Assembly: GCA_036271815.1 (NCBI GenBank) | Contig: DATAZX010000013.1 | Coordinates: 16,545-80,544, forward strand | Length of the DNA: 64,000 nucleotides | From: Solirubrobacteraceae bacterium | GTDB taxonomy: Bacteria; Actinomycetota; Thermoleophilia; Solirubrobacterales; Solirubrobacteraceae | Direction: 5' to 3' | Shown here: one piece after another, positions 44,551 through 62,500 of the stretch | Layout of the letters: each line of letters opens with the position of its first letter | Numbering within the stretch: the first letter of the stretch is position 1 | The notes under the pieces: model-generated | The model's input: the letters and a program-made list of their open reading frames with translations, nothing else | What the model was told of the DNA's origin: nothing | Database searches by the model: none | Position numbers and translations under genes: made by a program

Positions 44551-44841
44551 TCAAGCCGGGGGAGGAGGCGGCGGCGGGCGCCAGGGCTCGCCGGGCTTGC
44601 GCGACGGGGGCGTCCAGCCCTTCGCGGTCATGCCGAGCGTGTTCATCGCGCGCTCCTTGACCGTCCACGGCAGGCGCCGGTACAGCGGCACGAACAGCGT
44701 CCGCCACAGCGTGCCGCCGGACTCGCGGTAGGGCGCCACCGTCGACGGCTGGTCGCGCCCGATCTCGCTCAGCACGGCGAGGCGCAGGTAGTGCTCCGAG
44801 CGCTCCCGCAGGTTGCGCTTGGCGTCCGAGACCGAGCTCAC
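44551..44841 (-). CDS. small hypothetical protein (96 aa) ending in a poly-Pro tail; last gene of the long minus operon
   Basis: GTG start overlapping the upstream stop (GTGA). VSSVSDAKRNLRERSEHYLRLAVLSEIG...TLWRTLFVPLYRRLPWTVKERAMNTLGMTAKGW...PPPPPPPA. Confidence 0.55.
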   Translation of the reverse strand: MSSVSDAKRNLRERSEHYLRLAVLSEIGRDQPSTVAPYRESGGTLWRTLFVPLYRRLPWTVKERAMNTLGMTAKGWTPPSRKPGEPWRPPPPPPPA

Positions 44842-46193
44842 GTCGCCACCACCAGCTCGTTCGCGCGCTGCGCCGCCAGCGCGTTCTGCGCCGCGATCGA
44901 GATCGGCTCGAAGAGGGCGCCGATCGGCGGCGAGTAGATGTTCTCCATGTAGGCGAGGTCGTACAGCGTCGCGCCGCGCTTGGCCGCGAACGCGAGGAAG
45001 TCGCAGCGCTCCTTGACGCCCTCGCCGCCGTGGATGACGCCGCCGATCAGCCGCAGCGTGCCCGGCTCGGCGAGCAGCTTGACGAACGTCTTCGTCGCGC
45101 CCGGGAAGTAGCGCGCCTTCGTGACGCCGACGCCCTTGGCGAGCACGTACGGGATTCCGATCGACTTGGCGAGGTTCTCGCCCATCGAGAAGCCGCCGAT
45201 CGTGTAGTCGCCGGCGACCATGCCCCACGGCACCCACACCGGGTCGTAGGCGAGGTCGGAGCCCGTGATGTTGAACGCCGCGACCCGGCCCTGGGCGTAC
45301 GCGTGCGCGCCCGTGAGCCCGACGATCGGGACCATGTTCAGGCCGTGCGGGACCTCGATGACGTCGCCCGCCGCCCACACGCCCTTCGCCGACGTGCGCA
45401 TGTGATCGTCGACGACGACCGCCCCGGTCGTGCCGAGCTTCAGGCCCGCGGCCTCGGCGAGCGCGGTGTTCGGGACCTTGTGCAGGCCCGTCACGACCGC
45501 GTCGCATTCGATCACGCCGTCGGACGTCGTGACGGCGCGGACGTGCCCGTCGGCGTTGCCGTCGAAGGACTCGAGCCGCGTACCGAGGTGCAGCTTCACG
45601 CCGCGCGCCTCGAGCGAGTCGTGGACGGGCTTGGCGACGTCGGGATCGAGGATCTCGTGCAGCACCCAGGGACCCTCGTCGACGAGGTCGACCTGCAGCC
45701 CGCGGTGCGCCAGCGCCCCCGCCATCTCGACCGCGATCGGGCCGCCACCGTGGACGACGACGCGCTTCATGTCGTCGAGCTTCTCGTCGAACTCCATCGA
45801 CTTGCGGATGTCCTTGACGTAGTGCAGCCCGTCGAGGTTCGCGCCCGGCACCTTCGGCTGCTCCCAGAAGAAGCCGGTGCAGAGGATCAGCTGGTCGAAG
45901 CCCTCCGGCTGGTTGCGGACCGTGATCGTGCGGCGGTCGAGGTCGATGTCGGTGACGGTCGTCTCCATGCGCATGTCGAGGCCGTCCTCCTCGTAGCGCG
46001 CGACGGTCGAGAGGAAGAGGTCGTCGAACTTCGGGATCTCCCTGCCGTGCACGAAGGGGATCCCGCACGGCGAGTAGGCGATGTCCGAGAACTCCGTGAA
46101 CACGCTCACCTTCAGGGCCGGGTTCAGGCGTTTGGTGATGGTGGCGGCTGCCGTACCCGCGCCGCCACCGCCGATGACGATCACGCGCTCCAT
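44838..46193 (-). CDS. FAD-dependent pyridine nucleotide-disulfide oxidoreductase (NADH oxidase / CoA-disulfide reductase-like, single redox Cys)
   Basis: VIVIGGGGAGTAAA (FAD), YSPCGIPF (the redox-Cys position of Nox/CoADR enzymes), VVVHGGGPIAVEMAG (NAD(P)H) and GVWAAGDV. Confidence 0.85.
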   Translation of the reverse strand: MERVIVIGGGGAGTAAATITKRLNPALKVSVFTEFSDIAYSPCGIPFVHGREIPKFDDLFLSTVARYEEDGLDMRMETTVTDIDLDRRTITVRNQPEGFDQLILCTGFFWEQPKVPGANLDGLHYVKDIRKSMEFDEKLDDMKRVVVHGGGPIAVEMAGALAHRGLQVDLVDEGPWVLHEILDPDVAKPVHDSLEARGVKLHLGTRLESFDGNADGHVRAVTTSDGVIECDAVVTGLHKVPNTALAEAAGLKLGTTGAVVVDDHMRTSAKGVWAAGDVIEVPHGLNMVPIVGLTGAHAYAQGRVAAFNITGSDLAYDPVWVPWGMVAGDYTIGGFSMGENLAKSIGIPYVLAKGVGVTKARYFPGATKTFVKLLAEPGTLRLIGGVIHGGEGVKERCDFLAFAAKRGATLYDLAYMENIYSPPIGALFEPISIAAQNALAAQRANELVVAT

Positions 46194-47425
46194 GATGGTT
46201 CCTCTCGGTCGTTGACAATCAGATCTGAGATCTCCTCGCGGCGGCGATGCAGGCGCCACGTGCCCCCGTCGCGCGCGACGATCGCCGGGCGCAGGTCGCC
46301 GAACTGCGTCGACTGCACCTGGTTGTAGGCGCCGACGTCGCGGGCGATCAGCACGTCGCCCGGGGCGAGCTCGCCGAGGCGGGCGGCGGGGGCGAGGACG
46401 TCGATGTTCAGGCACAGCGGCCCCGCGACGAGCGCCGGTGAGGCCGTGGCGTCGCCTCGCGGTCGCAGGGGCTCCAGGCGCGGCCACGCCCACAGGGCGC
46501 TGGCGAGCAGGTTCGTGCCGGCGTCGACGACGGCGCAGATGCTCGCGTCGGCGAGGGTCTTGACGGCGACGACCGTGCAGGCGAGGTCGACCGCGTCGGC
46601 GACGAGCGCGCGGCCCGGCTCGAGCAGCAGGCGCCCGTCGAAGCCCGCGCCGCGCAGGGCGTGGGCGACGGCGGCGGCCGTTGCCGTGGCGGCCGTCGAC
46701 GGCGCCGCCGGCCAGCCGCCGCCGAGGTCGATCGTCGTGACGCCGAGCTGGGCGGCGAGCCCGGCGAGCGTCGCGGCGGCCTGGGCGTGGACCGCCGGCG
46801 ACTTCGCCCACGCGACGCGGACGTTGGCGGCGAGGTTGTCCGCGCGCTCGCCCCCGGCGCCGGCACCCGCGCCGGCATCGGTGGGAGCCGTGAAGTCGGT
46901 CGAGACGAGGTGCACGGACAGCGCCTCGAGCGTCAGCCCGAGCTCGATCGCGCGGCGACCCGCGGCGACCACGTCCGCGGGGGCGATCCCGAAGCGGCTC
47001 GCCTGACCCTCCGGGCCGGGCAGCCCGACGCGGATCCCCGCCCGCTCGACGCCCGCGAGCGCGAGCCGTCGCAGCTCGGGCGCGCTGTCGACGATCACCA
47101 GCGCGCCGTCGGCGGCGGCACGCTCGAGCAGTGCGTCGGGCTTGACCGGGCCGTTGACCGTGATCCGCGGCCCGTCGACGCCGACGACGTCGCGCGCCAG
47201 CGCGTACTCCGCGGCGCACACGACCTCGGCCCCCGCGCCGTCGTCGGCGAACGCACGCAGGAACGCCGTCGTGCGGTTCGTCTTGTAGGAGTAGGAGATC
47301 TCGGTGTCTGGCCAGGCCGCCGACCACGCCTCGCGCATGCCGGCCAGCCGCTCGCGGGCGCGGTCGACGTCGGCGAGCCAGAGCGGGGAGCCGTGCTCGG
47401 CGACGAGCGCGGCGACGGCGCTCAC
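46181..47425 (-). CDS. fold-type III PLP-dependent decarboxylase (Orn/DAP/Arg decarboxylase family 2)
   Basis: YSYKTN (PLP Lys), IDLGGGWP, LLLEPGRALV and GPLCLNIDVL. GTGA overlap with the upstream gene. Confidence 0.85.
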   Translation of the reverse strand: MSAVAALVAEHGSPLWLADVDRARERLAGMREAWSAAWPDTEISYSYKTNRTTAFLRAFADDGAGAEVVCAAEYALARDVVGVDGPRITVNGPVKPDALLERAAADGALVIVDSAPELRRLALAGVERAGIRVGLPGPEGQASRFGIAPADVVAAGRRAIELGLTLEALSVHLVSTDFTAPTDAGAGAGAGGERADNLAANVRVAWAKSPAVHAQAAATLAGLAAQLGVTTIDLGGGWPAAPSTAATATAAAVAHALRGAGFDGRLLLEPGRALVADAVDLACTVVAVKTLADASICAVVDAGTNLLASALWAWPRLEPLRPRGDATASPALVAGPLCLNIDVLAPAARLGELAPGDVLIARDVGAYNQVQSTQFGDLRPAIVARDGGTWRLHRRREEISDLIVNDREEPSWSA

Positions 47426-48783
47426 AGTCCCTCCCGCACGGTCGCGGCGAGGTGCAGCGCCCGCGGCGTCCCCTTGCTGTCCAGCAGCGCGGCGACCGGC
47501 TCGCGCCAGCGCCCGGATGCCGCCTCGGCGATCGCCTCGGGCAGCACGCTGCGCAGGTGGCCCATCGCCCACGGGTCGGGTCGCGAGAGGTTCAGGCGCA
47601 GCGTCGTCGCGGCGCCCGTCGCGCCCATCCCGTCGCCGGGGTACGTGGCCACGTGGCGTGCGAACAGGGCGACCATCAGCTCCTGCGCCGTGACGCCGGC
47701 ACCGGACGTGTCCAGCGCGCAGGCCAGGCCGCGCACGGGCGAGGTCGTCAGCGCCACCCCGTCGACGGCGGCGAGCGTGGCCTTCAGATGCGAGAGGTTG
47801 CCGCGCACGATCCGCTCGGCGTGCGGCAGGTAGTCGACGTCCTCGAGCGCGCCGAGCGCGCCGTGCTGGGCGATCAGGCTCGTATTCAGGCGCGTCAGCG
47901 CGGCCTTCAGGCGCAGGCAGCTGCGCATCAGGCGCGACGGCCCGGCGAGGAAGCCGATCCGCGCACCCGCCATCCCGAAGCAGTGCGAGACCGAGAACGT
48001 CGCGACGGCGTTCTCGGTCAGCCGCAGGGCGGGCAGCGAGGCGAACGGGACGTCGGGATCGATGACGAGTGGCGCGTGCGTGACGTCGTGGATCAGCAGC
48101 AGGTCGTGCTCGTCGGCGAGCCGCGCGAGGGCGGCGAGCTCGTCCGGGGTCTGGACGGTCCCGTACGGGTTCAGCGGGTCGACGATCACGATCGCGCGGG
48201 TGCGCGGCGTGATCGCCGCGGCGACGAGGTCGGGGTCGAGGCGAAAGCCGGTGCTCGCGTCGATCGAGACGGTCACCGGCACGGCGCCCGTGGCGATCAC
48301 GGCCGACGGCACGTGGAAGTAGCCCGGATCGGACAGGATGACCTCGTCGCCCGGGCCGGCGACGGCCATCAGCGACAGCGCGATGCCGGCCTGCGCGCCC
48401 TCCGTCCCGATGACCTCGAAGCTCTCGTCGCGCGGGCGGCCGAGCACGCGCGCGGCGGATTCGCGCAGCGGCTCGACGAGATCCGGGCTGTACTGGTTGA
48501 GGTGCTCGGCGGTGACGGCGTCGCGCATCGCGTCGACCGCGCTCGCGGGCGGGCCGGCGAAGCAGGTCAGCCAGCCGAGGTCGGCCCACGTCGCGGGATC
48601 CAGCCGCGTCGTGCCGCCGGGGTACATCGTCGCGGGGTCGAAGCCGACGATCGCGATCGCGTCGCGGTAGGTGAGGTAGTTCCACATCGCGTGGTGCGAG
48701 CGCTCGAGCGCGATCAGCCGCTCGGACGCAAGCTGCGGCGTGCTGTCGGGGTCGGTGCCCCAGGTGAGGACGGAGGAGCTCAT
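47422..48783 (-). CDS. class I/II aminotransferase-fold protein with His at the Schiff-base lysine position
   Basis: DPLNPYG and LLLIHD fit the fold. The usually invariant S-x-S-K-x-F-x-M-x-G-x-R-x-G block reads SVSHCFGMAGARIG (His codon CAC, complement of 47983-47985). Confidence 0.8.
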   Translation of the reverse strand: MSSSVLTWGTDPDSTPQLASERLIALERSHHAMWNYLTYRDAIAIVGFDPATMYPGGTTRLDPATWADLGWLTCFAGPPASAVDAMRDAVTAEHLNQYSPDLVEPLRESAARVLGRPRDESFEVIGTEGAQAGIALSLMAVAGPGDEVILSDPGYFHVPSAVIATGAVPVTVSIDASTGFRLDPDLVAAAITPRTRAIVIVDPLNPYGTVQTPDELAALARLADEHDLLLIHDVTHAPLVIDPDVPFASLPALRLTENAVATFSVSHCFGMAGARIGFLAGPSRLMRSCLRLKAALTRLNTSLIAQHGALGALEDVDYLPHAERIVRGNLSHLKATLAAVDGVALTTSPVRGLACALDTSGAGVTAQELMVALFARHVATYPGDGMGATGAATTLRLNLSRPDPWAMGHLRSVLPEAIAEAASGRWREPVAALLDSKGTPRALHLAATVREGL

Positions 48784-49682
48784 GCGGCCGCACCCCGCTC
48801 GGCGGTGGTGCCGGCACCGGCGCCGGCATCGGGGTCGCGCACGAAGCGCATGACGCGGTAGATCGCGTTGCGATCCGAGGTCACGGTCGCCGGCGCGTAC
48901 CCCGCAGCGCGCGCGTAGCCCTCGATCTGCCCGGCCGGGCGCAGCCGCCACACGCAGCGCCCGCCCTCGGCGTTGCGCCACACGCGGGCGATGTACTCGA
49001 TCTCCGGGTTGTCGACCTGGACGTTGCAGACGATCTGCGCCGGCGCGACGGTCTCGGCGAGGTCGAGGAAGTGGCGCGCGATGAGGGCGTCGTCGTGGTA
49101 GATGCCGTACAGCCCGAGCTCGCAGACGACGTCCGGCCGCGGGCGCAGCGTCAGCAGGGCATCGCGATCGAAGGCGCTCGCCCGGCGCGTCGTCATGCGG
49201 TCCTCGACGCCGAGCTCGCGAGCCGCCGCGGTCGCCTGCTCGAGCGCGGCCGCGTCGATGTCCCACAGGACGGCGGTGACGGCGGGGCGCCGCGCGATCG
49301 CGCGCAGCAGGTATGGGCTCGGGCCGGCGGCGAGGTCCGCGACGACCGGTCGATCGCCGGTGGTGGCGTCGATCGCCTCGAGCACCGCCGTCTCCGCGAG
49401 GCCGCGGATGTCGCGAAACGCCTGGCAGGTCGGGCGGCTCAGCAGCCGGCGGTCCAGCCGCCGTCCGATCGTCGTGCGCCCGGCCGCGCGGTTGGCGTAG
49501 ACGTGCGCCATGAACGGCCCGGAGTCGAAGCCGTGGCGGTGCCCGATGCGCGTCCCCTCGGACACGCACGCGCTCGCCCGCGAGGCGAGCGACAGCGCCG
49601 CGAAGCGCCACGCCCGCGGCGAGCTGCGCGGCAGCTCGGCCCGCAAAGCCTCAAATCGCCGGGCTGAGAGCTCAGCCGACAT
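48780..49682 (-). CDS. class I SAM-dependent methyltransferase
   Basis: Rossmann-type motif I VVADLAAGPSPYL, an acidic post-I residue (WDID) and motif-III-like VCELGLYG. Confidence 0.7.
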   Translation of the reverse strand: MSAELSARRFEALRAELPRSSPRAWRFAALSLASRASACVSEGTRIGHRHGFDSGPFMAHVYANRAAGRTTIGRRLDRRLLSRPTCQAFRDIRGLAETAVLEAIDATTGDRPVVADLAAGPSPYLLRAIARRPAVTAVLWDIDAAALEQATAAARELGVEDRMTTRRASAFDRDALLTLRPRPDVVCELGLYGIYHDDALIARHFLDLAETVAPAQIVCNVQVDNPEIEYIARVWRNAEGGRCVWRLRPAGQIEGYARAAGYAPATVTSDRNAIYRVMRFVRDPDAGAGAGTTAERGAAA

Positions 49683-50208
49683 ACAACCCCGTCTCGACGA
49701 GCTCGCGGCGGCGGTACAGCTCGTGCGCGTCGCCGGCGGCGCTGTGCGGTCGCGTCATCAGCGTGGCGAGGCGCTCCTGGGCCGCGTCGTTGTCGGCGAT
49801 CACGACCGCGAGCGTCTGCGCGTCCTCGCCCGCGGCGCCGGCGGCATACGTATCGAGCAGCTGGCCGAAGTGATCGAGCGAGCCGGCGGCGTAGGCGACG
49901 AGCTCCTCGAAGTCCGCGATGACCTCGATGCGCTCGTAGATCGCGTCGCCCTCGGGCGGCGCGACGTACGCGTCGGGGTCGACGCCGTGCGCGAGCGCGC
50001 GGACGCGGAAGAGGTTCATGTGGCGCGCGTTCGCCGCGACGAGCTCGGCGAGCAGCTGCTTGGCCTCGGGGTCGTCGGTGCCCGGGACGCGCGCCGAGAA
50101 CAGGTCGACCCACCGGCGCATGCCGTAGGCGTGGCGGGCGAAGACCTTGCCGATGCGCTCGGGGTCCTCTCCGAGCACGGTGAGCAGTTCGTCGCGGTTA
50201 GTCAGCAT
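49672..50208 (-). CDS. all-helical hypothetical protein (178 aa); ferritin / haem-oxygenase-like fold suspected
   Basis: Helical heptad-like composition with scattered E/H/D (ARHAYG, ANARHMNLF, GSLDHF). No firm motif. Confidence 0.5.
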   Translation of the reverse strand: MLTNRDELLTVLGEDPERIGKVFARHAYGMRRWVDLFSARVPGTDDPEAKQLLAELVAANARHMNLFRVRALAHGVDPDAYVAPPEGDAIYERIEVIADFEELVAYAAGSLDHFGQLLDTYAAGAAGEDAQTLAVVIADNDAAQERLATLMTRPHSAAGDAHELYRRRELVETGLYVG

Positions 50209-54914: not shown

Positions 54915-54943
54915 TTGACGTGCGGCCCAGGTCGCGCTAGGAA
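54915..54943 (+). promoter_or_regulatory. candidate promoter TTGACG-N17-TAGGAA for the plus operon
   Basis: Seen directly in the 190-bp divergent region. The region also holds an 8-bp inverted pair, TATCGGAT (54837-54844) / ATCCGATA (54953-54960). Confidence 0.3.
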
Positions 54944-55022
54944 TGCATCCACAATCCGATAAGGGCTCCGGCGAGGTCGGGGTCCGGCTGGCTGCGAGGC
55001 CGGCTCGACAGAGGGAGACGGC

Positions 55023-55496: not shown

Positions 55497-55500
55497 GACC

Positions 55501-56127: not shown

Positions 56128-56987
56128 TGCCGACCCACCCGAAGAAGATCATCGACGCGCACTGCCACATCGGGGAGATCCCGCCGTGGAAGTTCTACGA
56201 CCTCGAGCATCCGGTGAAGCCGACGGTCTACGACTACAAGGACACGAAGTCCTTCGTCAAGAACCACATGCAGGAGTTCAAGGTCGAGCGCGCGCTCGTG
56301 ATGTCGAACTACGGCGTGCCGATCCCCGAGCTGTCGTTCGACCTCAACGACGTGGTGCTCGAGGCGTCGACCTCCAACGACCGCATCCTCGCGGCGCTGT
56401 GGGTCTCGTTCCTGCCGCGCAACGCCGAGCTGACGCGCAAGGCGCTGAAGCTCGTGACGGAGTCGAGCGTCGTGGCGCTGAAGACGACGTTCCTGCTCGG
56501 CGGCAACCCGGACCCGGGCACGTGGGACGAGGAGACGACGGCGATCGCCGACGAGTGCTTCGACATCTGCGAGAAGCACGACCTGATCTTCCACTTCCAC
56601 ACGAGCCCGGGCGGCAACTCGGACTTCGGCAACTTCATCCCGCTCGTCGAGAAGTACGGCAAGCGCTGCAAGATCTACCTCGTGCACATGGGCGGCGGCG
56701 TCTCGGGCCACATCAAGCTCGTGCCGAAGTTCCTCAAGTGGGTGGAGGAGGGCTACAAGGTGTACACCGACACCTCGTGGGCCGTCGGCTTCGGCGCGCG
56801 CTGGCTGCTGACCGAGATCGAGAAGACCGGCGTCGGCGGCGATCGCGTGTTCTTCGGCTCCGACGAGCCGTGGTCGGACTTCGACTCGGAGTACTGGAAG
56901 CTCAACGGCATCCGCGGCATCTCGCAGGAGCTCAAGGACAACGTCTTCTGGCGCAATTTCGAGACGCTCTACGACGGTCGTGGCTGA
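56127..56987 (+). CDS. amidohydrolase-2 (TIM-barrel metal-dependent hydrolase) family protein
   Basis: IIDAHCHIG (HxH), ...LVHMGGG... and ...FFGSDEPW (metal Asp). GTG start overlapping the upstream TAG. Lys/Phe/Tyr-rich. Confidence 0.8.
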   Translation: MPTHPKKIIDAHCHIGEIPPWKFYDLEHPVKPTVYDYKDTKSFVKNHMQEFKVERALVMSNYGVPIPELSFDLNDVVLEASTSNDRILAALWVSFLPRNAELTRKALKLVTESSVVALKTTFLLGGNPDPGTWDEETTAIADECFDICEKHDLIFHFHTSPGGNSDFGNFIPLVEKYGKRCKIYLVHMGGGVSGHIKLVPKFLKWVEEGYKVYTDTSWAVGFGARWLLTEIEKTGVGGDRVFFGSDEPWSDFDSEYWKLNGIRGISQELKDNVFWRNFETLYDGRG

Positions 56988-58149
56988 GTCCGGCGTCAGC
57001 GACGTGCCGGTGCCGCTGTCGCTCGACGATCGCAGGCTGCTCGTCGAGCTGCAGTCCTTCGGCGTCCGCGTGGTCGGGGGCGACGGCGCCCTCGGCCGCC
57101 GCGGCGGCGCGGGCCCGTCCGACGCGCTGTTCCTCTACGTGCGCGGGCTGCCGCTGACGGTGCCCCAGCACGCCGAGTACGTGACCAGCTCGCCCTACAC
57201 GCTGCGCCTCGACGGCGCGAAGCCTTCGCTGTATCGCGACGACGACCTCGTCGGCGTCGTCGGGCTCCCGCGGCGGCCGAAGATCTACGACATGCAGACC
57301 GCGGATGGGATCCCGTACTGGAAGATCGCGCTGCTGCACCTCGACTCGATCGCCTCGACCGTCGTGCAGAAGTGCATCTACTGGGGCACGCCCGAGCAGT
57401 GCGGCTTCTGCGGGATCGAGCTGACGCGCGGCGAGCAGACGATCCCGGTCAAGACGCCGGCGCAGCTCGCGGAGGTCTGCAGCGCGGCGCACCGCCTCGA
57501 CGGCGCGGTCGACGCGACGCTGACGACCGGCTCGATCAACCGCCGCGACCGCGGCGCGCTCTACATCTCCAAGTGCGCGGCGGCGATCAAGGACGCCTGC
57601 GGCATGCCCGTGCAGGTGCAGTTCGAGCCGCCGGACGACCTCGCCGTGCTCGACGAGGTGCACCGCGCCGGCGTCGACGCGGTCGGCATCCACATCGAGA
57701 CGTTCGATCCCGACGTGCTCGCGCGCGTCGCGGCCGGCAAGGCACAGTGCGGCGTCGAGGGCTACTTCCGCACGTGGGAGCGGGCCGTCGAGGTCTTCGG
57801 CCGCGGGCGCGTGACGACGTACGTGATCCTCGGCATGGGCGAGCGTCGCGAGCTCATCGAAGAGGGCTGCCGGCGGGCGATCGAGATGGGCGTGTACCCG
57901 TTCGTCGTGCCGATCCGGCCCGTCCGCGGGACGCTGCTGCAGGACACGCCGACGCCCGACCCGGACTACGTCGCGGCGATCTACAAGAGCGTGTCGGCGA
58001 TGCTCGCCGCGTCCGGCCTCGACCACTCCGAGGCCGCCGCCGGCTGCGCGCGCTGCCAGGCCTGCTCCGGGCTGTCCGCCTGGGAGCGGGTCTTCGAGAA
58101 GGAGGCCAACGGTGGCCATTTCGAGCTCGGCGCCGTCCACGCTTCCTGA
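56980..58149 (+). CDS. radical SAM-type protein (MSMEG_0568-like) with unusual Cys spacing
   Basis: The cluster region reads C-IYWGTPEQ-C-GF-C (Cx8Cx2C), not CX3CX2C. TIM-barrel-like GIHIETFD follows, with a C-terminal CARCQAC (CX2CX2C). The first ~125 aa precede the Cys cluster. Confidence 0.7.
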   Translation: MAESGVSDVPVPLSLDDRRLLVELQSFGVRVVGGDGALGRRGGAGPSDALFLYVRGLPLTVPQHAEYVTSSPYTLRLDGAKPSLYRDDDLVGVVGLPRRPKIYDMQTADGIPYWKIALLHLDSIASTVVQKCIYWGTPEQCGFCGIELTRGEQTIPVKTPAQLAEVCSAAHRLDGAVDATLTTGSINRRDRGALYISKCAAAIKDACGMPVQVQFEPPDDLAVLDEVHRAGVDAVGIHIETFDPDVLARVAAGKAQCGVEGYFRTWERAVEVFGRGRVTTYVILGMGERRELIEEGCRRAIEMGVYPFVVPIRPVRGTLLQDTPTPDPDYVAAIYKSVSAMLAASGLDHSEAAAGCARCQACSGLSAWERVFEKEANGGHFELGAVHAS

Positions 58150-58654
58150 CCGCGCACCGCTCGCGTGCGGGCTCGCGCGCGGGCGCGCCGAGCTCGACGA
58201 GCACTTCGCGGTGCGCCGGCGGATCTTCGTCGCGGCGCAGGGGCTGTTCGCCGACGACGACCGCGACGCCCACGACGACGACCCGGCGACGCTGCACGCG
58301 GTCGCGCGCTCGGGCGGGGACGTCGCGGGTGCCGTGCGCCTGTACCCGCTCGACGGCGACGGCCTGTGGAAGGGCGACCGGCTCGCCGTCCTGCCCGCCG
58401 AGCGCGCCCTGCAGCTCGGCGCGATGCTCGTGCGCTTCGCCGTCCGCACGGCGGGAGAGCGCGGCGGCCGGCTGATGATCGCCCAGGTCCAGGTCCCGAA
58501 CGTGCGCTTCTTCGAGCGTCTGGGCTGGAGCGCCGACGGCGACGTGACCCCGATGTTCGGCGTCGATCACCAGCCGATGGCGATCGCGCTCGGCGCCGGC
58601 AGCGGTCGCGGTCGTGGCCGCACCGCCGGCGCCGGCCTCAGCCCAGGCCGGTGA
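58112..58654 (+). CDS. GNAT-family N-acetyltransferase (MSMEG_0567/Sll0786-like)
   Basis: ...AVRLYPL...GDRLAVLPAERALQLGAMLVRFAV...FFERLGW. GTG start preceded by AGGAGG, overlapping the radical SAM gene by 38 nt. Confidence 0.8.
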   Translation: MAISSSAPSTLPDRAPLACGLARGRAELDEHFAVRRRIFVAAQGLFADDDRDAHDDDPATLHAVARSGGDVAGAVRLYPLDGDGLWKGDRLAVLPAERALQLGAMLVRFAVRTAGERGGRLMIAQVQVPNVRFFERLGWSADGDVTPMFGVDHQPMAIALGAGSGRGRGRTAGAGLSPGR

Positions 58655-59573
58655 GCGGGGCGATGTCGAAGTCCCAGACGGTGGCGCCGGCGCCGCCGCT
58701 CTCGAGCTTCAGCGCCCGCGAGTCGTCGAAGTGCCCGCACGGCTCGCAGGCGAGGCCGCGGCGCGTGAAGACCTCGCAGGCGGCCCTCGCGTGCTCGGGC
58801 GCGGCGGCGAGCAGGAAGCCGAAGCTCGGGAACGTCTTCAGCCAGCGCTCCACGGAGACGCCGTCGGGACGCGGGAGCCGGTCGACGTCGAGCACCGCGC
58901 CGCAGCGCGCGGCCTCGAGCAGCTGCAGCAGCGAGCCGGCGGCGCCGGGCATCGAGACGTCGCGCGCGGCGTGGCAGAGCCCGACCTCGGCGACCTCGGC
59001 GAGCGCCTCGCCGTCGTCGCGCAGGTGCTCGGGCGCGCGATCGCGCAGCGACGTGAAGAAGTCCGTGTCGTCGCCCATGTACCGGCCCTCCAGGCAGAAC
59101 GCGCCGAGCAGGACGTCGCCGGGGCGCGCCGCCGCCGCGCGCAGCGGCCGGCGCGCGATGCCCGTGCACGTCGCCGACAGCGACGGCGCGCCGCCCATCG
59201 TCAGGTGCCCGCCGACGACCTCGACGCCGAGCAGGTCGGCCGCCCACGCCAGCCCCTCGAGCACGAGCTCGGCATGGGCCTCGTCGGGGCTGACGAGCAT
59301 GTCGAGGATCGCGAGCGGGCGCCCGCCCATCGCGCGCACGTCGGAGACGTTCGTCACGACGGCCGACGCGCCCGCCGCGCGCGGCTGCGCCGCCACGAAC
59401 GACGGCAGGATCGCCTCGCCGCAGAGCACGATCCACTCGTCGCCGTGCGCGATCAGCGCGCCGTCGTCGCCGTCGCCGACCGGGCCGAGCCTCTTCACGA
59501 GCCGCAGGTCGCGCTTTGCGTGCAGCGCGGGCGAATCTCGGACGAGCGCCGCGAGGGCTTCAGGGTCGGGCAT
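58638..59573 (-). CDS. AIR-synthase-related protein (PurM/ThiL-like fold; sll0787-like)
   Basis: GDGDDGALI, ...NVSDVRAMGGRP..., ...VVGGHLT... and ...RDVSMPG.. Its 3' end overlaps the convergent GNAT gene by 17 nt. The start is ATG 59573, or alternatively GTG 59621. Confidence 0.8.
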   Translation of the reverse strand: MPDPEALAALVRDSPALHAKRDLRLVKRLGPVGDGDDGALIAHGDEWIVLCGEAILPSFVAAQPRAAGASAVVTNVSDVRAMGGRPLAILDMLVSPDEAHAELVLEGLAWAADLLGVEVVGGHLTMGGAPSLSATCTGIARRPLRAAAARPGDVLLGAFCLEGRYMGDDTDFFTSLRDRAPEHLRDDGEALAEVAEVGLCHAARDVSMPGAAGSLLQLLEAARCGAVLDVDRLPRPDGVSVERWLKTFPSFGFLLAAAPEHARAACEVFTRRGLACEPCGHFDDSRALKLESGGAGATVWDFDIAPLTGLG

Positions 59574-59623
59574 CGCGGCGAATCTAGTGGACGAGCACAA
59601 CCAATCGGAATCGGAGGCCACAC

Positions 59624-61051
59624 GTGACGCTTGATCAGGCGGTGCTGCGCAGGGTGGAGGTCGTCAACGTCGGGCTTGCCGCGTTCGGCGAGGCGATCCG
59701 CGACCAGGACACCCCGGTCGTCGACGTCGACTGGCGCCCGCCGGCGTCCGGCGACCCGCGGGCCGTCGCGGCGCTCGAGCGCCTGTGGGGCGAGCACGGC
59801 GCGACGGTCGCCGCGGCGAACGAGACCGTCGTGTCGCGGATGGAGGCGGCGTCTCCGCGCGCCGTCGCCGTGTCGACCGCGCGCGACGTCCTGCCGGTGC
59901 TGGCCGAGGGTCGCACGCTGATCCACTCCGGCCCGCCGATCGCGCCCGACCGCCTCGCGGACCCACAGCGCCGCGCGCTCGTGGCCGCGGCGATCTTCGA
60001 GGGCTGGGCCGACGACCGGCCGTCGGCCCGCGCGCTGATCGCGTCCGGTGCGATCGGGCTGGCCTCGGGCAACGAGAACAACCACGTCGGCGCGATGACC
60101 GGCGTCTGCTCGCCGTCGATGCCCGTCTGGGTGATCGAGGACGAGGGCTCGGGCGCGCGCACGTTCTCGACCTTCAACGAGGGCGCCGGCAAGACGCTGT
60201 GGTTCGGCACCGACGCCGACGAGGCGATCGAGCGGCTGCGCTTCTTCCGCGACGACCTCGGCCCGCTGATGAACCGCCTGATCGAGCGCCTCGGCCCGAT
60301 CGAGATCTTCAAGCTCGCGGCCCAGGGCCTGCATCAGGGCGATGAGCTGCACATGCGCAGCCAGGCGACCGGCAACCTGCTGATCCGCGACCTGCTGCCG
60401 GGCTTCGCGGCGCTGGGCGGCGAGAAGGCGGCGCGCTTCCTGTCGACGAACTGGCACTTCTTCCTCAGCCTCACGATCGGCGCGTCGAAGTGCACGCTGC
60501 TGGCGGGGTCGGGGGTGCCGGGCGCGAGCGTCGTCTCGGTGATCTCGCGCAACGGCACCGACATGGGCCTGCAGCTCGCGTCGATGCCGGGCCGCTGGTT
60601 CCTGGCGCCGTCGCCGCCCGTCGAGGACGCGCTGCTGCGCGAGGGCTACACCGAGGACGACGCGGCGAAGGACATCGGCGACTCGGCCGTGATCGAGTGC
60701 GTCGGTCTGGGTGGGATGGCCGTCGGCGCCGCGCCGGCCGTCGCGGCGTTCTTCGGCGGCGACGCGGCGGATGCGATCGCGCGCACCGAGCGCATGCGGG
60801 AGATCTGCGCGGGCCGCTCGCAGCGCTTCACGATCCCCGCGATGGACTCCGCGCCGACGCCCGTCGGGATCGACGCGCGCCTGGTCTGCGAGCTTCAGAT
60901 CGCGCCGCAGATCACGACCGGCGTGCTGCACGCGCGCGACGGCGTCGGCCAGATCGGCGCGGGCATCGCCCACCAGCCGACCGCGCCGTTCCAGGACGCG
61001 ACGATCGCGCTGGCCGCGGAGCTCGACGCCGCGAGCGCGGGCCGGGCGTGA
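59624..61051 (+). CDS. DUF1116 (YlbE-like) protein
   Basis: 475 aa. ...NENNHVGAMTG..., ...DELHMRSQATGN... and ...VISRNGTDMG... fit the pattern I associate with E. coli YlbE-type proteins. GTG start with GGAGG 6 nt upstream. Confidence 0.7.
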   Translation: MTLDQAVLRRVEVVNVGLAAFGEAIRDQDTPVVDVDWRPPASGDPRAVAALERLWGEHGATVAAANETVVSRMEAASPRAVAVSTARDVLPVLAEGRTLIHSGPPIAPDRLADPQRRALVAAAIFEGWADDRPSARALIASGAIGLASGNENNHVGAMTGVCSPSMPVWVIEDEGSGARTFSTFNEGAGKTLWFGTDADEAIERLRFFRDDLGPLMNRLIERLGPIEIFKLAAQGLHQGDELHMRSQATGNLLIRDLLPGFAALGGEKAARFLSTNWHFFLSLTIGASKCTLLAGSGVPGASVVSVISRNGTDMGLQLASMPGRWFLAPSPPVEDALLREGYTEDDAAKDIGDSAVIECVGLGGMAVGAAPAVAAFFGGDAADAIARTERMREICAGRSQRFTIPAMDSAPTPVGIDARLVCELQIAPQITTGVLHARDGVGQIGAGIAHQPTAPFQDATIALAAELDAASAGRA

Positions 61052-61968
61052 TCGAGGCGGCCGTCGCGCAGCCTCGCGGGACGGGCGTGGCGACGGACGT
61101 CGTCCTGCGGACCCCGCGCGTGACGGCAGCGCAGGCGGCCGGGACGGCGGACGGGCACGAGGTCGCGCGCGTTGCGTCACCGGCACTCGCGAGCTCGCGC
61201 GCGGGGCGGGCGCGATGCGGCGGCGACGCCCCGCGCGTGCTGCGCGCGACGGCGCTCGGGCTCGGTGCAGCCCGCGCGCTGCGCGGCGGCGCCGAGGGCG
61301 CGGTCGTGCTCGCGTTCGGGCCGGGTGGCTACCTGCTGCTCGGCGATCGCCACGTGCTGCTTGCGCCGGTGCGCTCGCCGCTGGGTCCGCTGTCGGTCCT
61401 CGTCGCGGGGCTCGCAGCCGGCCACCTCGTGCCCGGCGATCGCGTGCGCGTGACGGACGACGCGCTCGAGCTGGCGTCGCTGCGGATCGTGCTCGCGGGC
61501 GCGCGCCCGGCCCCGGCGCCGCGCGCGACGCCGCTGTCGGCGGACTGGCGGCCGGCGCTCGCCGCCGCGCTGCGCGTCGTGGCCCCCGTCCCGGCGGACC
61601 TGATCGCGGGCCTCGACGCGCTCGCCCGCGGCGACGTCGGCGGCGGCCTGTCGCGGCTCGCGGGGCTCGGCGAGGGGCTGACGCCCGCGGGCGACGACGT
61701 GCTCGCGGGCTACATGGCGTGGCGCTGGTCGCAGGGGACGCGCCTGACGCTGCCGGCGCACAACTGCGCGCCGCTCGGCCGCGACTACCTGCGCTGCGCC
61801 GAGCGCGGCGAGCTGCCTGCGCCCGCGGCGCGCGTCCTGCAGGCGATCCGCGACGGCGAGCCGCAGGCCGCCGAGCGCGCGGCGCGCGGCCTCGGCGCCT
61901 GGGGTGCGAGCTCGGGCCGGGCGCTGCTGTGGGGGATCGCGGCCGGTGCCCGCTGCGACCATGCTTGA
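61048..61968 (+). CDS. DUF2877 (YlbF-like) protein
   Basis: ...LAGLGEGLTPAGDDVLAGY... is the hallmark GxGxGLTPxGDDxLxG motif. GTGA overlap with the DUF1116 gene. Confidence 0.7.
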   Translation: MIEAAVAQPRGTGVATDVVLRTPRVTAAQAAGTADGHEVARVASPALASSRAGRARCGGDAPRVLRATALGLGAARALRGGAEGAVVLAFGPGGYLLLGDRHVLLAPVRSPLGPLSVLVAGLAAGHLVPGDRVRVTDDALELASLRIVLAGARPAPAPRATPLSADWRPALAAALRVVAPVPADLIAGLDALARGDVGGGLSRLAGLGEGLTPAGDDVLAGYMAWRWSQGTRLTLPAHNCAPLGRDYLRCAERGELPAPAARVLQAIRDGEPQAAERAARGLGAWGASSGRALLWGIAAGARCDHA

Positions 61969-62500
61969 TCAGACCGTCATGCTCGATCGCGACGGCATGC
62001 GCCGCGCGCTCGTGCGGATCGCGCACGAGATCGTCGAGAACGGCGGCGATCCCGCGCGGCTGGCGCTCGTCGGCATCCACCGCCGCGGCGCCGTGCTCGC
62101 GGCGCGGCTGCGCCGGCTGCTGATCGAGCTGCACGACATCGAGCTGCCGCTCGGCGACCTCGACATCTCGTTCTATCGCGACGACGTGACGCTGCGCGCG
62201 GGCTCGCCGGTCGTCCACGCGACGCACCTGGACTTCGCCGTCGACGGGCTCACGGTCGTGATCGTCGACGACGTGCTGTTCACCGGGCGCACCGTGCGCG
62301 CCGCGATCGAGGCGCTGTTCGACTACGGCCGCCCCGCGCGCGTGCAGCTCGCCGTCCTCTGCGACCGCGGCCATCGCGAGCTGCCGGTGCGCCCGGACTA
62401 CGTCGGGCGCAACCTGCGCACCGCCCGCTCGGCCCGCGTCTTCGTCGCCGTCGACGAGCTCGACGGCGACGACAGCGTGACGTTGAGCGACCTCGACTGA
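61961..62500 (+). CDS. pyrR: bifunctional pyrimidine regulatory protein / uracil phosphoribosyltransferase
   Basis: ...LVGIHRRGAVLA..., ...DISFYRDD... and the PRPP loop VVIVDDVLFTGRTVRAA. ATG overlapping the DUF2877 stop by 8 nt. Confidence 0.9.
   Translation: MLDQTVMLDRDGMRRALVRIAHEIVENGGDPARLALVGIHRRGAVLAARLRRLLIELHDIELPLGDLDISFYRDDVTLRAGSPVVHATHLDFAVDGLTVVIVDDVLFTGRTVRAAIEALFDYGRPARVQLAVLCDRGHRELPVRPDYVGRNLRTARSARVFVAVDELDGDDSVTLSDLD

Follow-up and report, generated by a model that had tools for sequence, protein, structure and literature searches.

Growth on cyanide as a nitrogen source requires the Nit1C cluster, whose function is still described as obscure (PMC7815647). MSMEG_0572 of the M. 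smegmatis cluster is among the most strongly GlnR-induced genes, at 263-fold (PMC3662644), and that cluster makes cells resistant to peroxide and increases NADPH/NADP (PMC6039565). At NCBI, canonical Nit1C genes are tagged with the GO term 'biosynthetic process'. A second relevant system is AllFGH, the oxalurate/oxamate carbamoyltransferase of E. coli, which was characterised in 2024 (PMC11326118) and works alongside a catabolic carbamate kinase (PMC11326118; PMC9843812). The reaction is reversible in vitro, and assays of the E. coli enzyme followed the synthesis of oxalurate from oxamate and carbamoyl phosphate (PMC11326118). Here we describe an actinobacterial locus in which relatives of both systems are interleaved; we found no description of such a composite cluster in the searchable literature, in keeping with a preliminary description of this DNA, which was aware of none.

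Results

The window analysed is a stretch of 64,000 nt from a Solirubrobacteraceae bacterium (GCA_036271815.1, contig DATAZX010000013.1, 16,545-80,544 of the forward strand). Positions 44551-61968 hold a divergent two-arm cluster of about 20 genes (Table 1). GC3/frame analysis of the window reproduced the earlier gene map of 44551-62500, and in the related genome L089 an independent gene caller gave the same genes with near-identical lengths. In order of transcription, the 11 genes of the minus arm encode an XRE-cupin regulator, carbamate kinase (CK), AllF, a GT4 glycosyltransferase, OsmC, h178, a Methyltransf_20 protein, an aminotransferase-fold protein, a decarboxylase, a flavoprotein and p96. 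Successive junctions overlap by 4, 4, 4, 0, 11, 11, 4, 4, 13 and 4 nt, bearing out the overlaps of 4-13 nt and the one exact abutment (GT4/OsmC) reported before. Across a gap of 190 nt, also as reported, the plus arm begins with p157 (Hp1), p208, Amidohydro_2, a radical SAM protein (rSAM) and a GNAT. The coordinates likewise agree with the convergent 17-nt overlap between the GNAT gene and the AIR-synthase-like (AIRS-like) gene on the minus strand, and with the stop/start overlaps that link allG, allH and pyrR. The overlap with allH is real, but pyrR did not hold up as part of this unit. Its position after allH is shared by the closest relatives alone: apart from the window, it is seen in L004/L089 and L006 (one of the 52 related loci with enough flank, plus L006). 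It is a passenger and no conserved cluster member.

Table 1. Features of the cluster, with positions in the window and the basis of each assignment
Feature	Position	Strand	Basis
p96, 96 aa, basic, rich in Trp/Arg/Pro, no Cys	44551..44841	-	start/stop by GC3 analysis
Single-Cys pyridine-nucleotide-disulfide oxidoreductase, CoADR/NADH oxidase/persulfide reductase group	44838..46193	-	Pyr_redox_2 181 bits
Orn/DAP/Arg-type PLP decarboxylase (type-A block)	46181..47425	-	PF02784 + PF00278; lysA 142 bits, below cut-off 298
Class I aminotransferase-fold protein (type-A block)	47422..48783	-	Aminotran_1_2 122 bits; partial DegT_DnrJ_EryC1
Methyltransf_20 methyltransferase (type-A block)	48780..49682	-	PF12147 128 bits
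h178, 178 aa, unknown family (type-A block)	49672..50208	-	alignment A10
OsmC/Ohr-like, thiol peroxidase fold	50198..50632	-	PF02566 60 bits; Cys55/57 + Cys116
MSMEG_0565-family GT4 glycosyltransferase	50633..51799	-	TIGR04047 391 bits, cut-off 260
AllF (FdrA), subunit of AllFGH-type carbamoyltransferase	51796..53283	-	NF004760 416 bits, just below cut-off 433
Carbamate kinase (CK)	53280..54227	-	NF009007 278 bits, cut-off 266; TIGR00746 332 bits, below cut-off 358
XRE-HTH + cupin regulator, PuuR-like architecture	54224..54832	-	HTH_3 + Cupin_2; PuuR 57 bits, below cut-off
Divergent control region	54833..55022	.	alignment A5 of 12 loci: invariant blocks
Hp1/NitB (p157), MSMEG_0572/Sll0783 family	55023..55496	+	TIGR04044 208 bits, cut-off 110
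p208, unknown family and fold	55501..56127	+	conserved
Amidohydro_2 metal-dependent hydrolase/decarboxylase	56127..56987	+	PF04909 59 bits
MSMEG_0568-family radical SAM	56980..58149	+	TIGR04043 383 bits, cut-off 304
MSMEG_0567/Sll0786-family GNAT	58112..58654	+	TIGR04045 97 bits, cut-off 68
sll0787-type AIR-synthase-like (PurM superfamily)	58638..59621	-	TIGR04049 278 bits, best match, below cut-off 321; AIRS + AIRS_C
AllG (DUF1116/YlbE) subunit	59624..61051	+	PF06545 210 bits; 36% identical to YlbE
AllH (DUF2877/YlbF) subunit	61048..61968	+	PF11392 61 bits; 28% identical to YlbF over C-terminal part
pyrR	61961..62500	+	NF003549 219 bits, cut-off 138; start 61961 or 61904; overlaps allH end

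The core genes are those of Nit1C. Hp1, the two-triad rSAM, the GNAT, the AIRS-like protein and the GT4 are kept as orthologues, and the proposed Nit1C-type core without a nitrilase stands: four of the family models pass their cut-offs (the AIRS-like protein has its own as best match, below cut-off), and neither the window nor any of the 52 related Thermoleophilia loci with enough flank, to which all counts out of 52 refer, yielded a nitrilase. After TIGR04049, the next matches of the AIRS-like protein are methanogenesis marker 2, ThiL and SelD; its start codon is uncertain (59573-59621), and its gene occurs in 51/52 loci, as does that of the GT4, whose next-best NCBIfam matches are MshA and BshA. 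Identity of the rSAM to canonical Nit1C proteins is only 41-45%, with both Cys triads (C132-x8-C141-x2-C144 and C356xxC359xxC362) invariant, canonical proteins included. The AF2 model of Hp1 (pLDDT 82) adds a new point: all its top Foldseek matches are DsrE/DsrF/TusBCD proteins (probability 1.0, E 2e-6 to 5e-4), giving Hp1 a DsrE/TusD-like fold with a Cys110, in a YAC110RF motif, that is invariant even in the canonical Klebsiella and Rhizobium proteins.

Where canonical clusters have the nitrilase, this one has the Amidohydro_2 gene, and p208 and Amidohydro_2 have together taken the nitrilase position. Both are present in all 52 loci. Amidohydro_2 is 77-98% identical among them, with invariant motifs H12xH14 and D246, and is absent from the related loci L074 and L079. 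For p208 there was no match in Pfam, NCBIfam or the PDB, and a Foldseek search of the PDB with its AF2 model (pLDDT 81.6) gave nothing at E<=0.001; it has 1175 homologues, and among the 120 of them listed, all that carry a name are called 'hypothetical protein'. It extends to distant loci as well.

What this cluster has gained relative to Nit1C is a predicted three-subunit AllFGH carbamoyltransferase and CK, whose genes are divided between the arms. The preliminary description had recognised an FdrA/DUF1116/DUF2877/carbamate-kinase set; by Pfam and by identity to the E. coli proteins (28-40% to FdrA, YlbE, YlbF and YbcF) its members are homologous to AllFGH-AllK, and FdrA, DUF1116 and DUF2877 are AllF, AllG and AllH of an AllFGH-type enzyme. 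AllF shares 40% identity with E. coli FdrA along its full length, and CK 39% with YbcF/AllK. Unlike FdrA, the AllF of the cluster has no C-terminal tail; that segment stands at the N-terminus of AllG, where residues 6-54 match FdrA residues 506-554, tying genes on two arms to one enzyme. Genes for CK and AllF were each found in 51/52 loci and for AllG in 50/52, while AllH is weakly conserved (35/52 at >=50% coverage). The interleaving claimed earlier is also conserved, as the carbamoyl genes are split over both arms, among Nit1C-type genes, in 49/52 loci. Carbamate kinases normally run towards ATP.

The cluster is real and not a one-off, being conserved in many soil actinobacteria. About 50 other species-level genomes share its gene order and orientation, and the same gene set occurs in other Actinomycetota and in Dormiibacterota MAGs whose rSAM is only ~60% identical. 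Relatives outside the 52 loci combine its parts with other enzymes: a nitrile hydratase is paired with AllG/AllH in L079 and with CK/AllF in Streptomyces L086, which also carries the cofactor-synthesis genes LarB, LarC and LarE. The canonical Nit1C clusters, judged from the two loci inspected, work without AllFGH and CK, so the carbamoyl step is no inherent part of the core; that AllFGH/CK never occur with a nitrilase is likewise read from those two loci.

The decarboxylase, aminotransferase-fold protein and methyltransferase had been taken as an integral part of the locus. Their distribution shows that they form an accessory module rather than core: this type-A block, which includes h178, is found in 38/52 loci (the methyltransferase and h178 genes each in 38), and the other 14 (type B) have XcbA/C/D and ComA instead, genes of coenzyme-M biosynthesis (PMC9457059). 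Translational coupling links allG-allH to xcbA-xcbD in type-B loci. Within the type-A block, the decarboxylase, also present in L001 and L089, retains the PLP lysine (YSYK48TN); the aminotransferase-fold protein has His in place of the expected PLP-binding Lys (SVSH267C, not SxSK), as do 41 of 42 homologues; and h178, without a match in Pfam, NCBIfam or PDB profiles, has invariant His26, His63 and His113.

The cluster also has a sulfur/thiol side that the preliminary description lacked, made up of the DsrE-fold Hp1 with its invariant Cys, a single-Cys CoADR-like reductase and OsmC, whose gene occurs in 52/52 loci. Profile and sequence comparison show that the flavoprotein and p96 do not belong to the Nit1C families MSMEG_0569 and MSMEG_0570. 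The flavoprotein has no relation to MSMEG_0569 and is CoADR/NADH-oxidase-like: its best NCBIfam match is CoA-disulfide reductase (271 bits, below the cut-off of 579), the nearest structures in the PDB are NADH oxidase (6ruz), CoADR (4fx9/3kd9), CoA-persulfide reductase (8a56) and Npsr (3ntd), and Cys43 lies in SPC43GIPF. Similarly, p96 has no similarity to MSMEG_0570 and no Pfam or NCBIfam match; its gene always follows that of the flavoprotein, with identities of 60-66% in type-B loci (alignment A2) and 33% in Streptomyces L086. In place of the MSMEG_0569/0570 pair of canonical Nit1C, this cluster has a single-Cys CoADR-type flavoprotein and p96, together with OsmC.

The divergent control region contains a near-palindromic operator-like site at ~54836-54851 and a second operator-like site, CACAATCCGATAAGG, at 54950-54964; an ATCCGA/TCGGAT motif occurs in 42-44 of 72 upstream regions. 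There are -35-like (TTGACG, 54915-54920) and -10-like (TAGGAA, 54938-54943) elements, and the 5' UTR has two GC-rich hairpins; comparison with Rfam gave no match. A GlnR-box match at 54865-54881 (GCAAC-N6-GAAACA) fits the M. smegmatis consensus Gn2AC-n6-GnAACA (PMC3662644). It is one of only two in the whole window, alone not significant at that scale; it recurs at the same position in 16/17 close-clade loci and was not found in more distant ones. The XRE-cupin gene is present in 51/52 loci, at the far end of the arm in some type-B loci. The XRE-cupin protein probably controls expression of the cluster via the conserved operator-like sites, as GlnR probably does too in the window's clade.

Discussion

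Positions 44551-61968 very probably constitute one functional unit and a variant of Nit1C. The best explanation overall, one that we hold tentatively, is that of a conserved, co-regulated cluster that represents an actinobacterial lineage of its own within the Nit1C/gpr 'nitrogen-starvation' clusters, with a thiol-linked pathway that releases carbamoyl groups. It is reasonable to infer a pathway that makes or dismantles a carbamoylated or ureido metabolite; its function is most likely the thiol-linked conversion of a carbamoyl unit via carbamoyl phosphate to NH3 and ATP, although we put forward the nitrogen-releasing carbamoyl-phosphate mechanism itself a little more tentatively still. The core enzymes would process a small C-N unit, bound to a thiol or persulfide carrier, into an N- or S-carbamoyl intermediate, and the hydrolase slot would supply a hydrolytic C-N step. 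AllFGH would then move the carbamoyl group onto phosphate, and CK would convert carbamoyl phosphate to NH3, CO2 and ATP, unless carbamoyl phosphate were used directly. The flavoprotein, OsmC and Hp1 would maintain the redox state of the thiol carrier, while the accessory block (h178, the methyltransferase, the Lys-less aminotransferase fold and the decarboxylase in the window, coenzyme-M genes in other genomes) may provide a small co-substrate.

Several observations run against nitrogen release. The GT4, GNAT, radical SAM, methyltransferase and PLP-type enzymes look more biosynthetic than catabolic, and accessory blocks that vary between genomes are a usual trait of biosynthetic clusters. The two canonical Nit1C loci inspected do without AllFGH/CK, and AllFGH is reversible in vitro, with the assays of the E. 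coli enzyme run towards synthesis (PMC11326118). Against the overall explanation, too, the GlnR-box match, not significant alone at window scale, was found in the close clade only.

The product of the cluster might instead be a small metabolite or cofactor that contains sulfur and is glycosylated and/or carbamoylated, such as a low-molecular-weight thiol or antioxidant made under nitrogen stress; we consider this possible but rather unlikely. CK would then give carbamoyl phosphate, AllFGH would be the carbamoyl donor enzyme, and the flavoprotein and OsmC would use or recycle the product. Such a role is in line with the synthesis of oxalurate from oxamate and carbamoyl phosphate by AllFGH in vitro (PMC11326118), the peroxide resistance given by the M. 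smegmatis cluster (PMC6039565) and the coenzyme-M genes of type-B loci (PMC9457059). It also suits the MshA/BshA-like matches of the GT4, which occurs alongside a GNAT, the second Cys triad of the rSAM, the sulfur/thiol parts (DsrE-fold Hp1, CoADR-like reductase, OsmC), the Lar genes of Streptomyces L086 and the GO term on canonical genes. However, near-universal presence and high conservation across an order argue for core physiology rather than a specialised product, though a cofactor would fit this as well. Carbamate kinases are, moreover, normally catabolic, and a copy of their own is rare in biosynthetic clusters. The nitrilase or nitrile hydratase of sister clusters and the cyanide-assimilation phenotype (PMC7815647) also point to nitrogen release.

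Ureide catabolism next door is improbable: in this reading AllFGH and CK would degrade oxalurate from purine or allantoin breakdown, as they do in E. coli, and the Nit1C-like operon alongside would be unrelated. The families are those of E. coli allFGH-allK and both systems serve nitrogen supply, but no allB/C/D/E-type allantoin genes occur in the window cluster or the annotated related loci, and the identities are low, with AllF below its model cut-off. The four genes are non-contiguous and interleaved with Nit1C-type genes in 49/52 loci, the linkage holds in lineages with an rSAM only ~60% identical, and in type-B loci allG-allH is coupled to xcb genes.

Mere juxtaposition of independent modules without a shared pathway would fit the separate promoters of the two arms, the AIRS-like gene on the opposite strand and the varying accessory blocks, but is very improbable given the 4-13 nt overlaps within arms, the spread of one enzyme's subunits, with a relocated segment, over both arms, and an order and orientation kept in ~50 species-level genomes and other lineages; this co-conservation excludes a chance arrangement limited to one genome.

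The cluster joins Nit1C genes to a set of enzymes for making carbamoyl phosphate and ATP, and this union offers new, testable clues to the role of Nit1C.

A Nit1C-type core without a nitrilase

The G+C content of the window is about 72%, so many of its raw ORFs are spurious frames; genes were mapped from third-position GC analysis and inspection of start codons. The two divergent arms, overlapping junctions, intervening gap and convergent overlap of the preliminary description were all recovered in this map, and an independent gene caller run on a related genome (L089) also returned these genes, differing little in length.

Positions of the cluster, its borders and features discussed in the text
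Feature	Position	Strand	Remarks
GlnR-box pattern match	43145-43161		upstream of Ppx/GppA gene
Left border of the cluster	43145-44550		lower-GC stretch (~66%) 3' of the tRNA gene
tRNA gene	43170-43243	+	left cluster border; Rfam
202-aa ORF	43641-44249	-	within the lower-GC stretch
Minus arm	54832 down to 44551	-	11 genes; junction overlaps 4, 4, 4, 0, 11, 11, 4, 4, 13, 4 nt
Decarboxylase gene	46181-47425
Aminotransferase-fold gene	47422-48783
Divergent region	54833-55022		190 nt between arms
Near-palindrome	~54836-54851		at XRE-cupin start; invariant block, 12-locus alignment
GCAAC-N6-GAAACA	54865-54881		invariant block, 12-locus alignment
TTGACG-N17-TAGGAA	54915-54943		promoter-like hexamers; invariant block, 12-locus alignment
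CACAATCCGATAAGG	54950-54964		invariant block, 12-locus alignment
Plus arm	55023-58654	+	five genes
AIR-synthase-like gene	59621-58638	-	convergent with GNAT gene, 17-nt overlap
AIR-synthase-like/allG start codons	59573-59624		gap at most ~50 nt, possibly 2 nt
FdrA-tail match in allG	59624-59785
DUF1116, DUF2877 and PyrR genes	right of AIR-synthase-like gene	+	stops and starts overlap
pyrR	61961-62500		overlaps allH 3' end

We compared the cluster with canonical, nitrilase-bearing Nit1C (or gpr) as found in Synechocystis (sll0783-0787), M. smegmatis (MSMEG_0565-0572), Pseudomonas (nitBCDEFGH) and on a Klebsiella plasmid (L084). The family assignments made from sequence inspection stood for the 157-aa protein (Hp1), the radical SAM protein, the GNAT and the glycosyltransferase GT4, which all pass their NCBIfam cut-offs. 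The AIR-synthase-like protein has the expected sll0787-family model as by far its top match but scores below the cut-off; the position of its gene in the cluster is conserved. With canonical Nit1C the window has in common orthologues of Hp1, the radical SAM protein, the GNAT and GT4 (the last being found in some canonical clusters) and probably an orthologue of the AIR-synthase-like protein; the order of Hp1 and the radical SAM-GNAT pair is the same.

Scores of proteins against family models (NCBIfam)
Protein	Model	Score (bits)	Cut-off (bits)	Outcome
GT4	MSMEG_0565	391	260	pass
Hp1	MSMEG_0572/Sll0783, TIGR04044	208	110	pass
Radical SAM	MSMEG_0568, TIGR04043	383	304	pass
GNAT	MSMEG_0567/Sll0786, TIGR04045	97	68	pass
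AIR-synthase-like	sll0787 family, TIGR04049	278	321	by far top match, below cut-off
Carbamate kinase	NF009007	278	266	pass
AllF	NF004760	416	433	below cut-off
DUF7714 (type-B loci)	XcbA family	346	150	pass
Lyase (type-B loci)	XcbD, 3-sulfopropionylcysteine synthase	623	600	pass
Lyase (type-B loci)	XcbC	458	575	top match, below cut-off
ComA (type-B loci)	phosphosulfolactate synthase	236	280	top match, below cut-off

The canonical clusters of Rhizobium and the Klebsiella plasmid encode Hp1, a nitrilase, radical SAM, GNAT, AIR-synthase-like, MSMEG_0570 and MSMEG_0569 proteins, and have neither AllFGH nor carbamate kinase. In the window, by contrast, AllFGH and carbamate kinase are added, a 208-aa protein (p208) and an Amidohydro_2 protein occupy the nitrilase position, the AIR-synthase-like gene lies on the opposite strand, and the regulator is an XRE-cupin protein rather than a sigma-54 activator. 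The radical SAM protein is only 41-45% identical to its canonical counterparts. The reported lack of a nitrilase was borne out: no cluster protein matches a nitrilase or CN_hydrolase model in NCBIfam or Pfam, and tblastn with the Klebsiella nitrilase found none in the window or in 52 related loci.

The flavoprotein, previously counted as a Nit1C member, had to be reassigned. It does not match the MSMEG_0569 model, and BLASTP against the Klebsiella MSMEG_0569 protein was not significant. Its sequence places it in the single-cysteine CoA-disulfide-reductase (CoADR), NADH-oxidase and persulfide-reductase group, with Cys43 at the redox position of the family. The 96-aa protein p96, considered as a diverged MSMEG_0570, gave no NCBIfam match, and BLASTP did not align it with MSMEG_0570 of Klebsiella. 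In the window, a CoADR-like flavoprotein, p96 and OsmC are found in place of the canonical MSMEG_0569 and MSMEG_0570.

A carbamoyl module divided between the two arms

In current Pfam, DUF1116 and DUF2877 are AllG and AllH, subunits of oxamate carbamoyltransferase, and both window proteins exceed the gathering scores (AllG, PF06545, 210 bits; AllH, PF11392, 61 bits), as the preliminary description had anticipated. Of the partners it proposed for them, the carbamate kinase passes its model, whereas AllF falls below its own, although it aligns with E. coli FdrA at 40% identity over 504 columns. Identities to the other E. coli proteins are 36% (AllG/YlbE), 28% (AllH/YlbF) and 39% (carbamate kinase/YbcF).

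Window AllF is 60 residues shorter than FdrA and lacks its C-terminal tail; in a difference from E. coli, this tail is encoded at the start of allG, where AllG residues 6-54 match FdrA residues 506-554 (L087:5196-5345, the 3' end of E. coli fdrA). The segment has thus moved between the two subunit genes, and since these genes lie on opposite arms, the move ties both arms to one enzyme.

Species-representative genomes, one per species, were scanned with the radical SAM alignment. The peptide patterns used, DG[IV]PYWKI and STVVQKCI, were built from the window's own lineage and are absent from both canonical Nit1C radical SAM proteins inspected. At least 585 genomes matched, from which the best 80 loci were fetched; among the matches listed, the closest radical SAM relatives belong to Solirubrobacteraceae and other Thermoleophilia. 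All 20 window proteins were compared with the fetched loci by tblastn, and genes were counted over the 52 Thermoleophilia loci with enough flank. Hp1, p208, Amidohydro_2 and OsmC were present in 52/52, carbamate kinase, AllF, GT4 and the XRE-cupin gene in 51/52 each, and AllG in 50/52; MSMEG_0569 and MSMEG_0570, like the nitrilase, were found in 0/52. AllH was found in 35/52 only, because its sequence is poorly conserved. The split layout, in which AllG lies on the arm opposite AllF and carbamate kinase, is retained in 49 of the 52 loci. More distant loci, in other Actinomycetota, Dormiibacterota and a MAG labelled Bacillota (radical SAM proteins about 60% identical), keep most of the set and have the flavoprotein gene at the head of the plus arm. 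Cultured carriers include Solirubrobacter ginsenosidimutans (L002) and a Conexibacter strain (L051). The association first noticed in a single genome is conserved, and the cluster is shown to be one conserved genetic unit with the subunits of one enzyme spread over both arms.

Locus L088 starts inside the cluster and was left out; its 1200-aa AllF-GT4-OsmC call (L088:1146-4748, ENA long-contig assembly) is probably a frameshift or assembly artefact, not a true fusion. The Streptomyces chiangmaiensis locus (L085) looks degraded by frameshifts, and another Streptomyces locus, L086, was taken in its place.

At the right edge, pyrR follows allH only in the closest relatives (with the same overlap in L089 and L006) and is absent from the others; it is outside the conserved cluster. 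The customary pyr biosynthesis genes do not accompany it in the window, and a tie to carbamoyl phosphate is no more than conceivable. At the left border, the lower-GC stretch may be a small foreign insertion; its 202-aa ORF has no Pfam match.

Two accessory blocks and an exchangeable hydrolase

The amino-acid-tailoring block described earlier exists in the window but proved to be accessory. It comprises the 178-aa protein h178, Methyltransf_20, an aminotransferase fold and an Orn/DAP-type decarboxylase, and occurs in 38 of the 52 loci, the window included (type A). The other 14 (type B) lack it and carry four genes after allH, encoding DUF7714, two proteins of the fumarate-lyase family and ComA; the two blocks do not co-occur in any of the 52. 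The type-B genes match coenzyme-M families, DUF7714 and one lyase passing the cut-offs. Together, XcbA, XcbC, XcbD and ComA account for all but one of the five steps by which bacteria make coenzyme M (PMC9457059). This likeness to XcbA-E of Xanthobacter autotrophicus is confined to the type-B sister clusters, where the genes replace the accessory block seen in the window; unlike X. autotrophicus, these clusters have no CoM-dependent alkene or epoxide enzymes. We know of no description of coenzyme-M genes in Solirubrobacterales. In L002, the type-B locus examined for XcbE, none was seen, and allH/xcbA and xcbA/xcbD overlap by 4 nt each. The type-B loci are L002:13946-19626, L022, L023, L025, L029, L031, L033, L034, L038, L041, L044, L046, L051 and L069; coenzyme-M genes also directly follow allH in L073, L075 and L082.

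The gene for the C-N hydrolase varies as well. In L079, Amidohydro_2 is absent and a cobalt-type nitrile hydratase with CbtA adjoins allG-allH (L079:2323-4848); L074 also lacks Amidohydro_2, and a nitrile hydratase gene lies at the edge of the type-B locus L044 (L044:20784-21107). The Streptomyces locus (L086:1-12798), a third version of the cluster, reads carbamate kinase, AllF, GT4, LarE, LarB, LarC, OsmC, AIR-synthase-like, flavoprotein, p96-like, Hp1, nitrile hydratase. Its Hp1 is 74% identical to that of the window, its flavoprotein is CoADR-like, its nitrile hydratase is of the cobalt type, and its LarE, LarB and LarC (nickel-pincer cofactor synthesis) all score above cut-off; no radical SAM, GNAT, Amidohydro_2 or LarA gene lies within the locus. 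We rejected thiocyanate hydrolase as the identity of this nitrile hydratase, as the true nitrile hydratase models pass and the thiocyanate model fails. Homologues of Xcb, ComA, nitrile hydratase and Lar proteins are all absent from the window. These gene contents suggest that the C-N hydrolase is an exchangeable slot, filled by nitrilase, nitrile hydratase or Amidohydro_2. Nitrile hydratase genes were also seen beside the variant cluster in unrelated lineages.

Features of individual proteins

The predicted structure of Hp1 (mean pLDDT 82) has only DsrE/DsrF/TusBCD sulfur-relay proteins as its top structural matches (probability 1.0), and one cysteine, Cys110 in a YACRF motif, is invariant in variant and canonical Hp1; window Hp1 shares 55-58% identity with its Klebsiella and Rhizobium counterparts. 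The model and the cysteine support the DsrE proposal made previously (PMC6039565). Two invariant Cys triads (six Cys) are common to variant and canonical radical SAM proteins, so their chemistry is probably alike. Amidohydro_2 retains its HxH and Asp metal ligands.

The aminotransferase-fold protein has a His at the expected PLP-Lys position (SVSH267C), as do 41/42 homologues. The same substitution of Lys by His is characteristic of ColD and other PMP-dependent sugar dehydratases, and by analogy the protein may use PMP like ColD-type dehydratases or be no transaminase at all. A low-complexity Ala/Gly insertion, AGAGAGAGG (residues ~183-192), separates the two Pfam domains of the decarboxylase.

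The proteins p208, p96 and h178 lie outside known families. For p208 we found 1175 homologues, and among the 120 listed every name given was 'hypothetical protein'; it has no Pfam, PDB-sequence or PDB-fold match, Foldseek against the PDB returned nothing at E<=0.001 with its model (pLDDT 81.6), and it is thus also without a recognisable fold. PDB searches gave nothing significant, either with single sequences (Hp1, radical SAM protein, Amidohydro_2) or with alignment profiles (p208, Amidohydro_2, h178). A DinB/YfiT-like thiol transferase is a conceivable identity for h178.

Candidate control sites between the arms

When the divergent region was aligned across 12 loci, four invariant blocks emerged, which are listed with their positions. 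Throughout the order, 42-44 of 72 upstream regions contain an ATCCGA/TCGGAT motif, which probably represents the operator sites of the XRE-cupin protein. The block GCAAC-N6-GAAACA fits the M. smegmatis GlnR consensus, Gn2AC-n6-GnAACA, and MSMEG_0572, the Hp1 gene of that species, is induced 263-fold (PMC3662644); a GlnR-box match 5' of Hp1 is a further likeness to canonical Nit1C, MSMEG_0572 being GlnR-induced in M. smegmatis. The 64-kb window has two occurrences of the pattern, where 0.6 would be expected. It stands at the same position in 16/17 close relatives and was not found in more distant loci. The motif is a lead towards GlnR control, and a hint that nitrogen starvation or cyanide might induce the cluster.

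The candidate promoter hexamers rest on phylogenetic footprinting, since a consensus sigma-70 scan returned no promoter; terminator-like sites were at chance level. The Hp1 5' UTR contains two GC-rich hairpins, with stems that seem compensatory between loci. An Rfam scan of 42-64 kb at gathering thresholds found nothing besides the tRNA, and a permissive scan of the divergent region gave no match, indicating no known riboswitch. The gap between the start codons of the divergent AIR-synthase-like gene and allG (30-38 nt in L001 and L002) is so short that their promoters must sit within the adjoining coding sequences.

Discussion

The Nit1C core was already known as a cluster, as were all the enzyme families save p208, p96 and h178. 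In the searchable literature we found no description of the nitrilase-less lineage with AllFGH and carbamate kinase, its breadth, its exchangeable hydrolase slot or its two alternative accessory modules, in agreement with the preliminary description, which knew of no account of this composite architecture. Certain themes seem to recur: an enzyme for C-N hydrolysis, be it nitrilase, nitrile hydratase or Amidohydro_2, in all versions; thiol or sulfur parts (the DsrE-fold Hp1, the single-Cys reductase and OsmC), with coenzyme-M genes or LarE in some; and AllFGH with carbamate kinase in nitrilase-less lineages.

We tentatively favour a nitrogen-scavenging pathway that runs via a carbamoyl intermediate and carbamoyl phosphate. 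Carbamate kinases normally run towards ATP, which argues for this direction. The E. coli AllFGH-AllK pair is catabolic (PMC11326118; PMC9843812), the canonical cluster is strongly induced by nitrogen starvation (PMC3662644), and Nit1C, whose function was called obscure in 2021, is needed for cyanide assimilation and growth on cyanide as nitrogen source (PMC7815647); each of these also speaks for scavenging. A small C-N unit on a thiol carrier would become a carbamoyl intermediate, from which AllFGH would make carbamoyl phosphate; the kinase would then yield NH3, CO2 and ATP. By analogy with E. coli AllFGH and AllK, carbamoyl groups would be expected to move onto or off phosphate in a reaction coupled to the formation of ATP.

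In the main rival, to which we give somewhat less weight, the cluster makes a cofactor or antioxidant that contains sulfur or is glycosylated or carbamoylated. GT4, GNAT, the radical SAM protein and the accessory blocks fit such a biosynthesis, as does the peroxide resistance associated with the M. smegmatis cluster (PMC6039565).

A bolder extension of nitrogen scavenging, to which we give little credence, would make this cluster and all Nit1C a thiol-carried C1-N shuttle. In [NiFe]-hydrogenase maturation, HypF and HypE combine carbamoyl-phosphate-linked transfer, a PurM-superfamily ATPase and a possible Cys-thiol C1-N carrier; they serve here as a mechanistic analogy only, with their logic reversed. 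A cyano- or cyanate-level unit would be caught by a thiol or persulfide, giving an S-cyano or S-carbamoyl adduct carried by Cys110 of Hp1 or by a small thiol, for example coenzyme M in type-B genomes. The lineage's own nitrilase, nitrile hydratase or Amidohydro_2 would hydrate the adduct; in nitrilase-less lineages AllFGH would hand the carbamoyl group to phosphate. The thiol would be regenerated by the CoADR-like reductase together with OsmC and p96. Unlike HypE, the AIR-synthase-like protein has no C-terminal Cys, HypE is not among its NCBIfam matches, no HypE or HypF homology was detected, and the reactions would have to run the other way.

It is unlikely that the module simply serves ordinary oxalurate catabolism beside a Nit1C core. 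Counterparts of all four genes of the E. coli allF-allG-allH-allK operon (fdrA-ylbE-ylbF-ybcF) lie in the window, AllF with a model score below cut-off, and work published in 2024 showed the purified E. coli AllFGH enzyme to be the oxalurate/oxamate transcarbamylase (PMC11326118). Unlike that operon, however, the window genes lie on two divergent arms about 6 kb apart, the cluster has no adjoining allantoin-degradation genes, and all-type ureide genes were found neither in it nor in the annotated related loci. The split genes, the moved tail and this lack of allantoin genes nearby suggest that oxalurate is probably not the substrate. Chance juxtaposition of the modules is likewise unlikely, since the composite recurs among the 52 loci and in distant lineages and is thus not peculiar to this genome.

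Comparative genomics places independent constraints on Nit1C, namely an exchangeable hydrolase slot, a link to carbamoyl phosphate and ATP in the nitrilase-less forms studied, an Hp1 with a sulfur-relay fold, and coenzyme-M genes in some genomes, which offer concrete handles on its function, a question dating from 2005. The range of contexts known for the newly defined AllFGH transcarbamylase is widened, and carriers are culturable (Solirubrobacter, Conexibacter, Streptomyces). If true, the thiol-carried shuttle would be a new biological route from cyanide- or cyanate-type nitrogen to carbamoyl phosphate, with ATP gained through carbamate kinase. Solirubrobacterales are abundant soil bacteria, and with at least 585 matching species-level genomes, the cluster may matter for soil nitrogen turnover.
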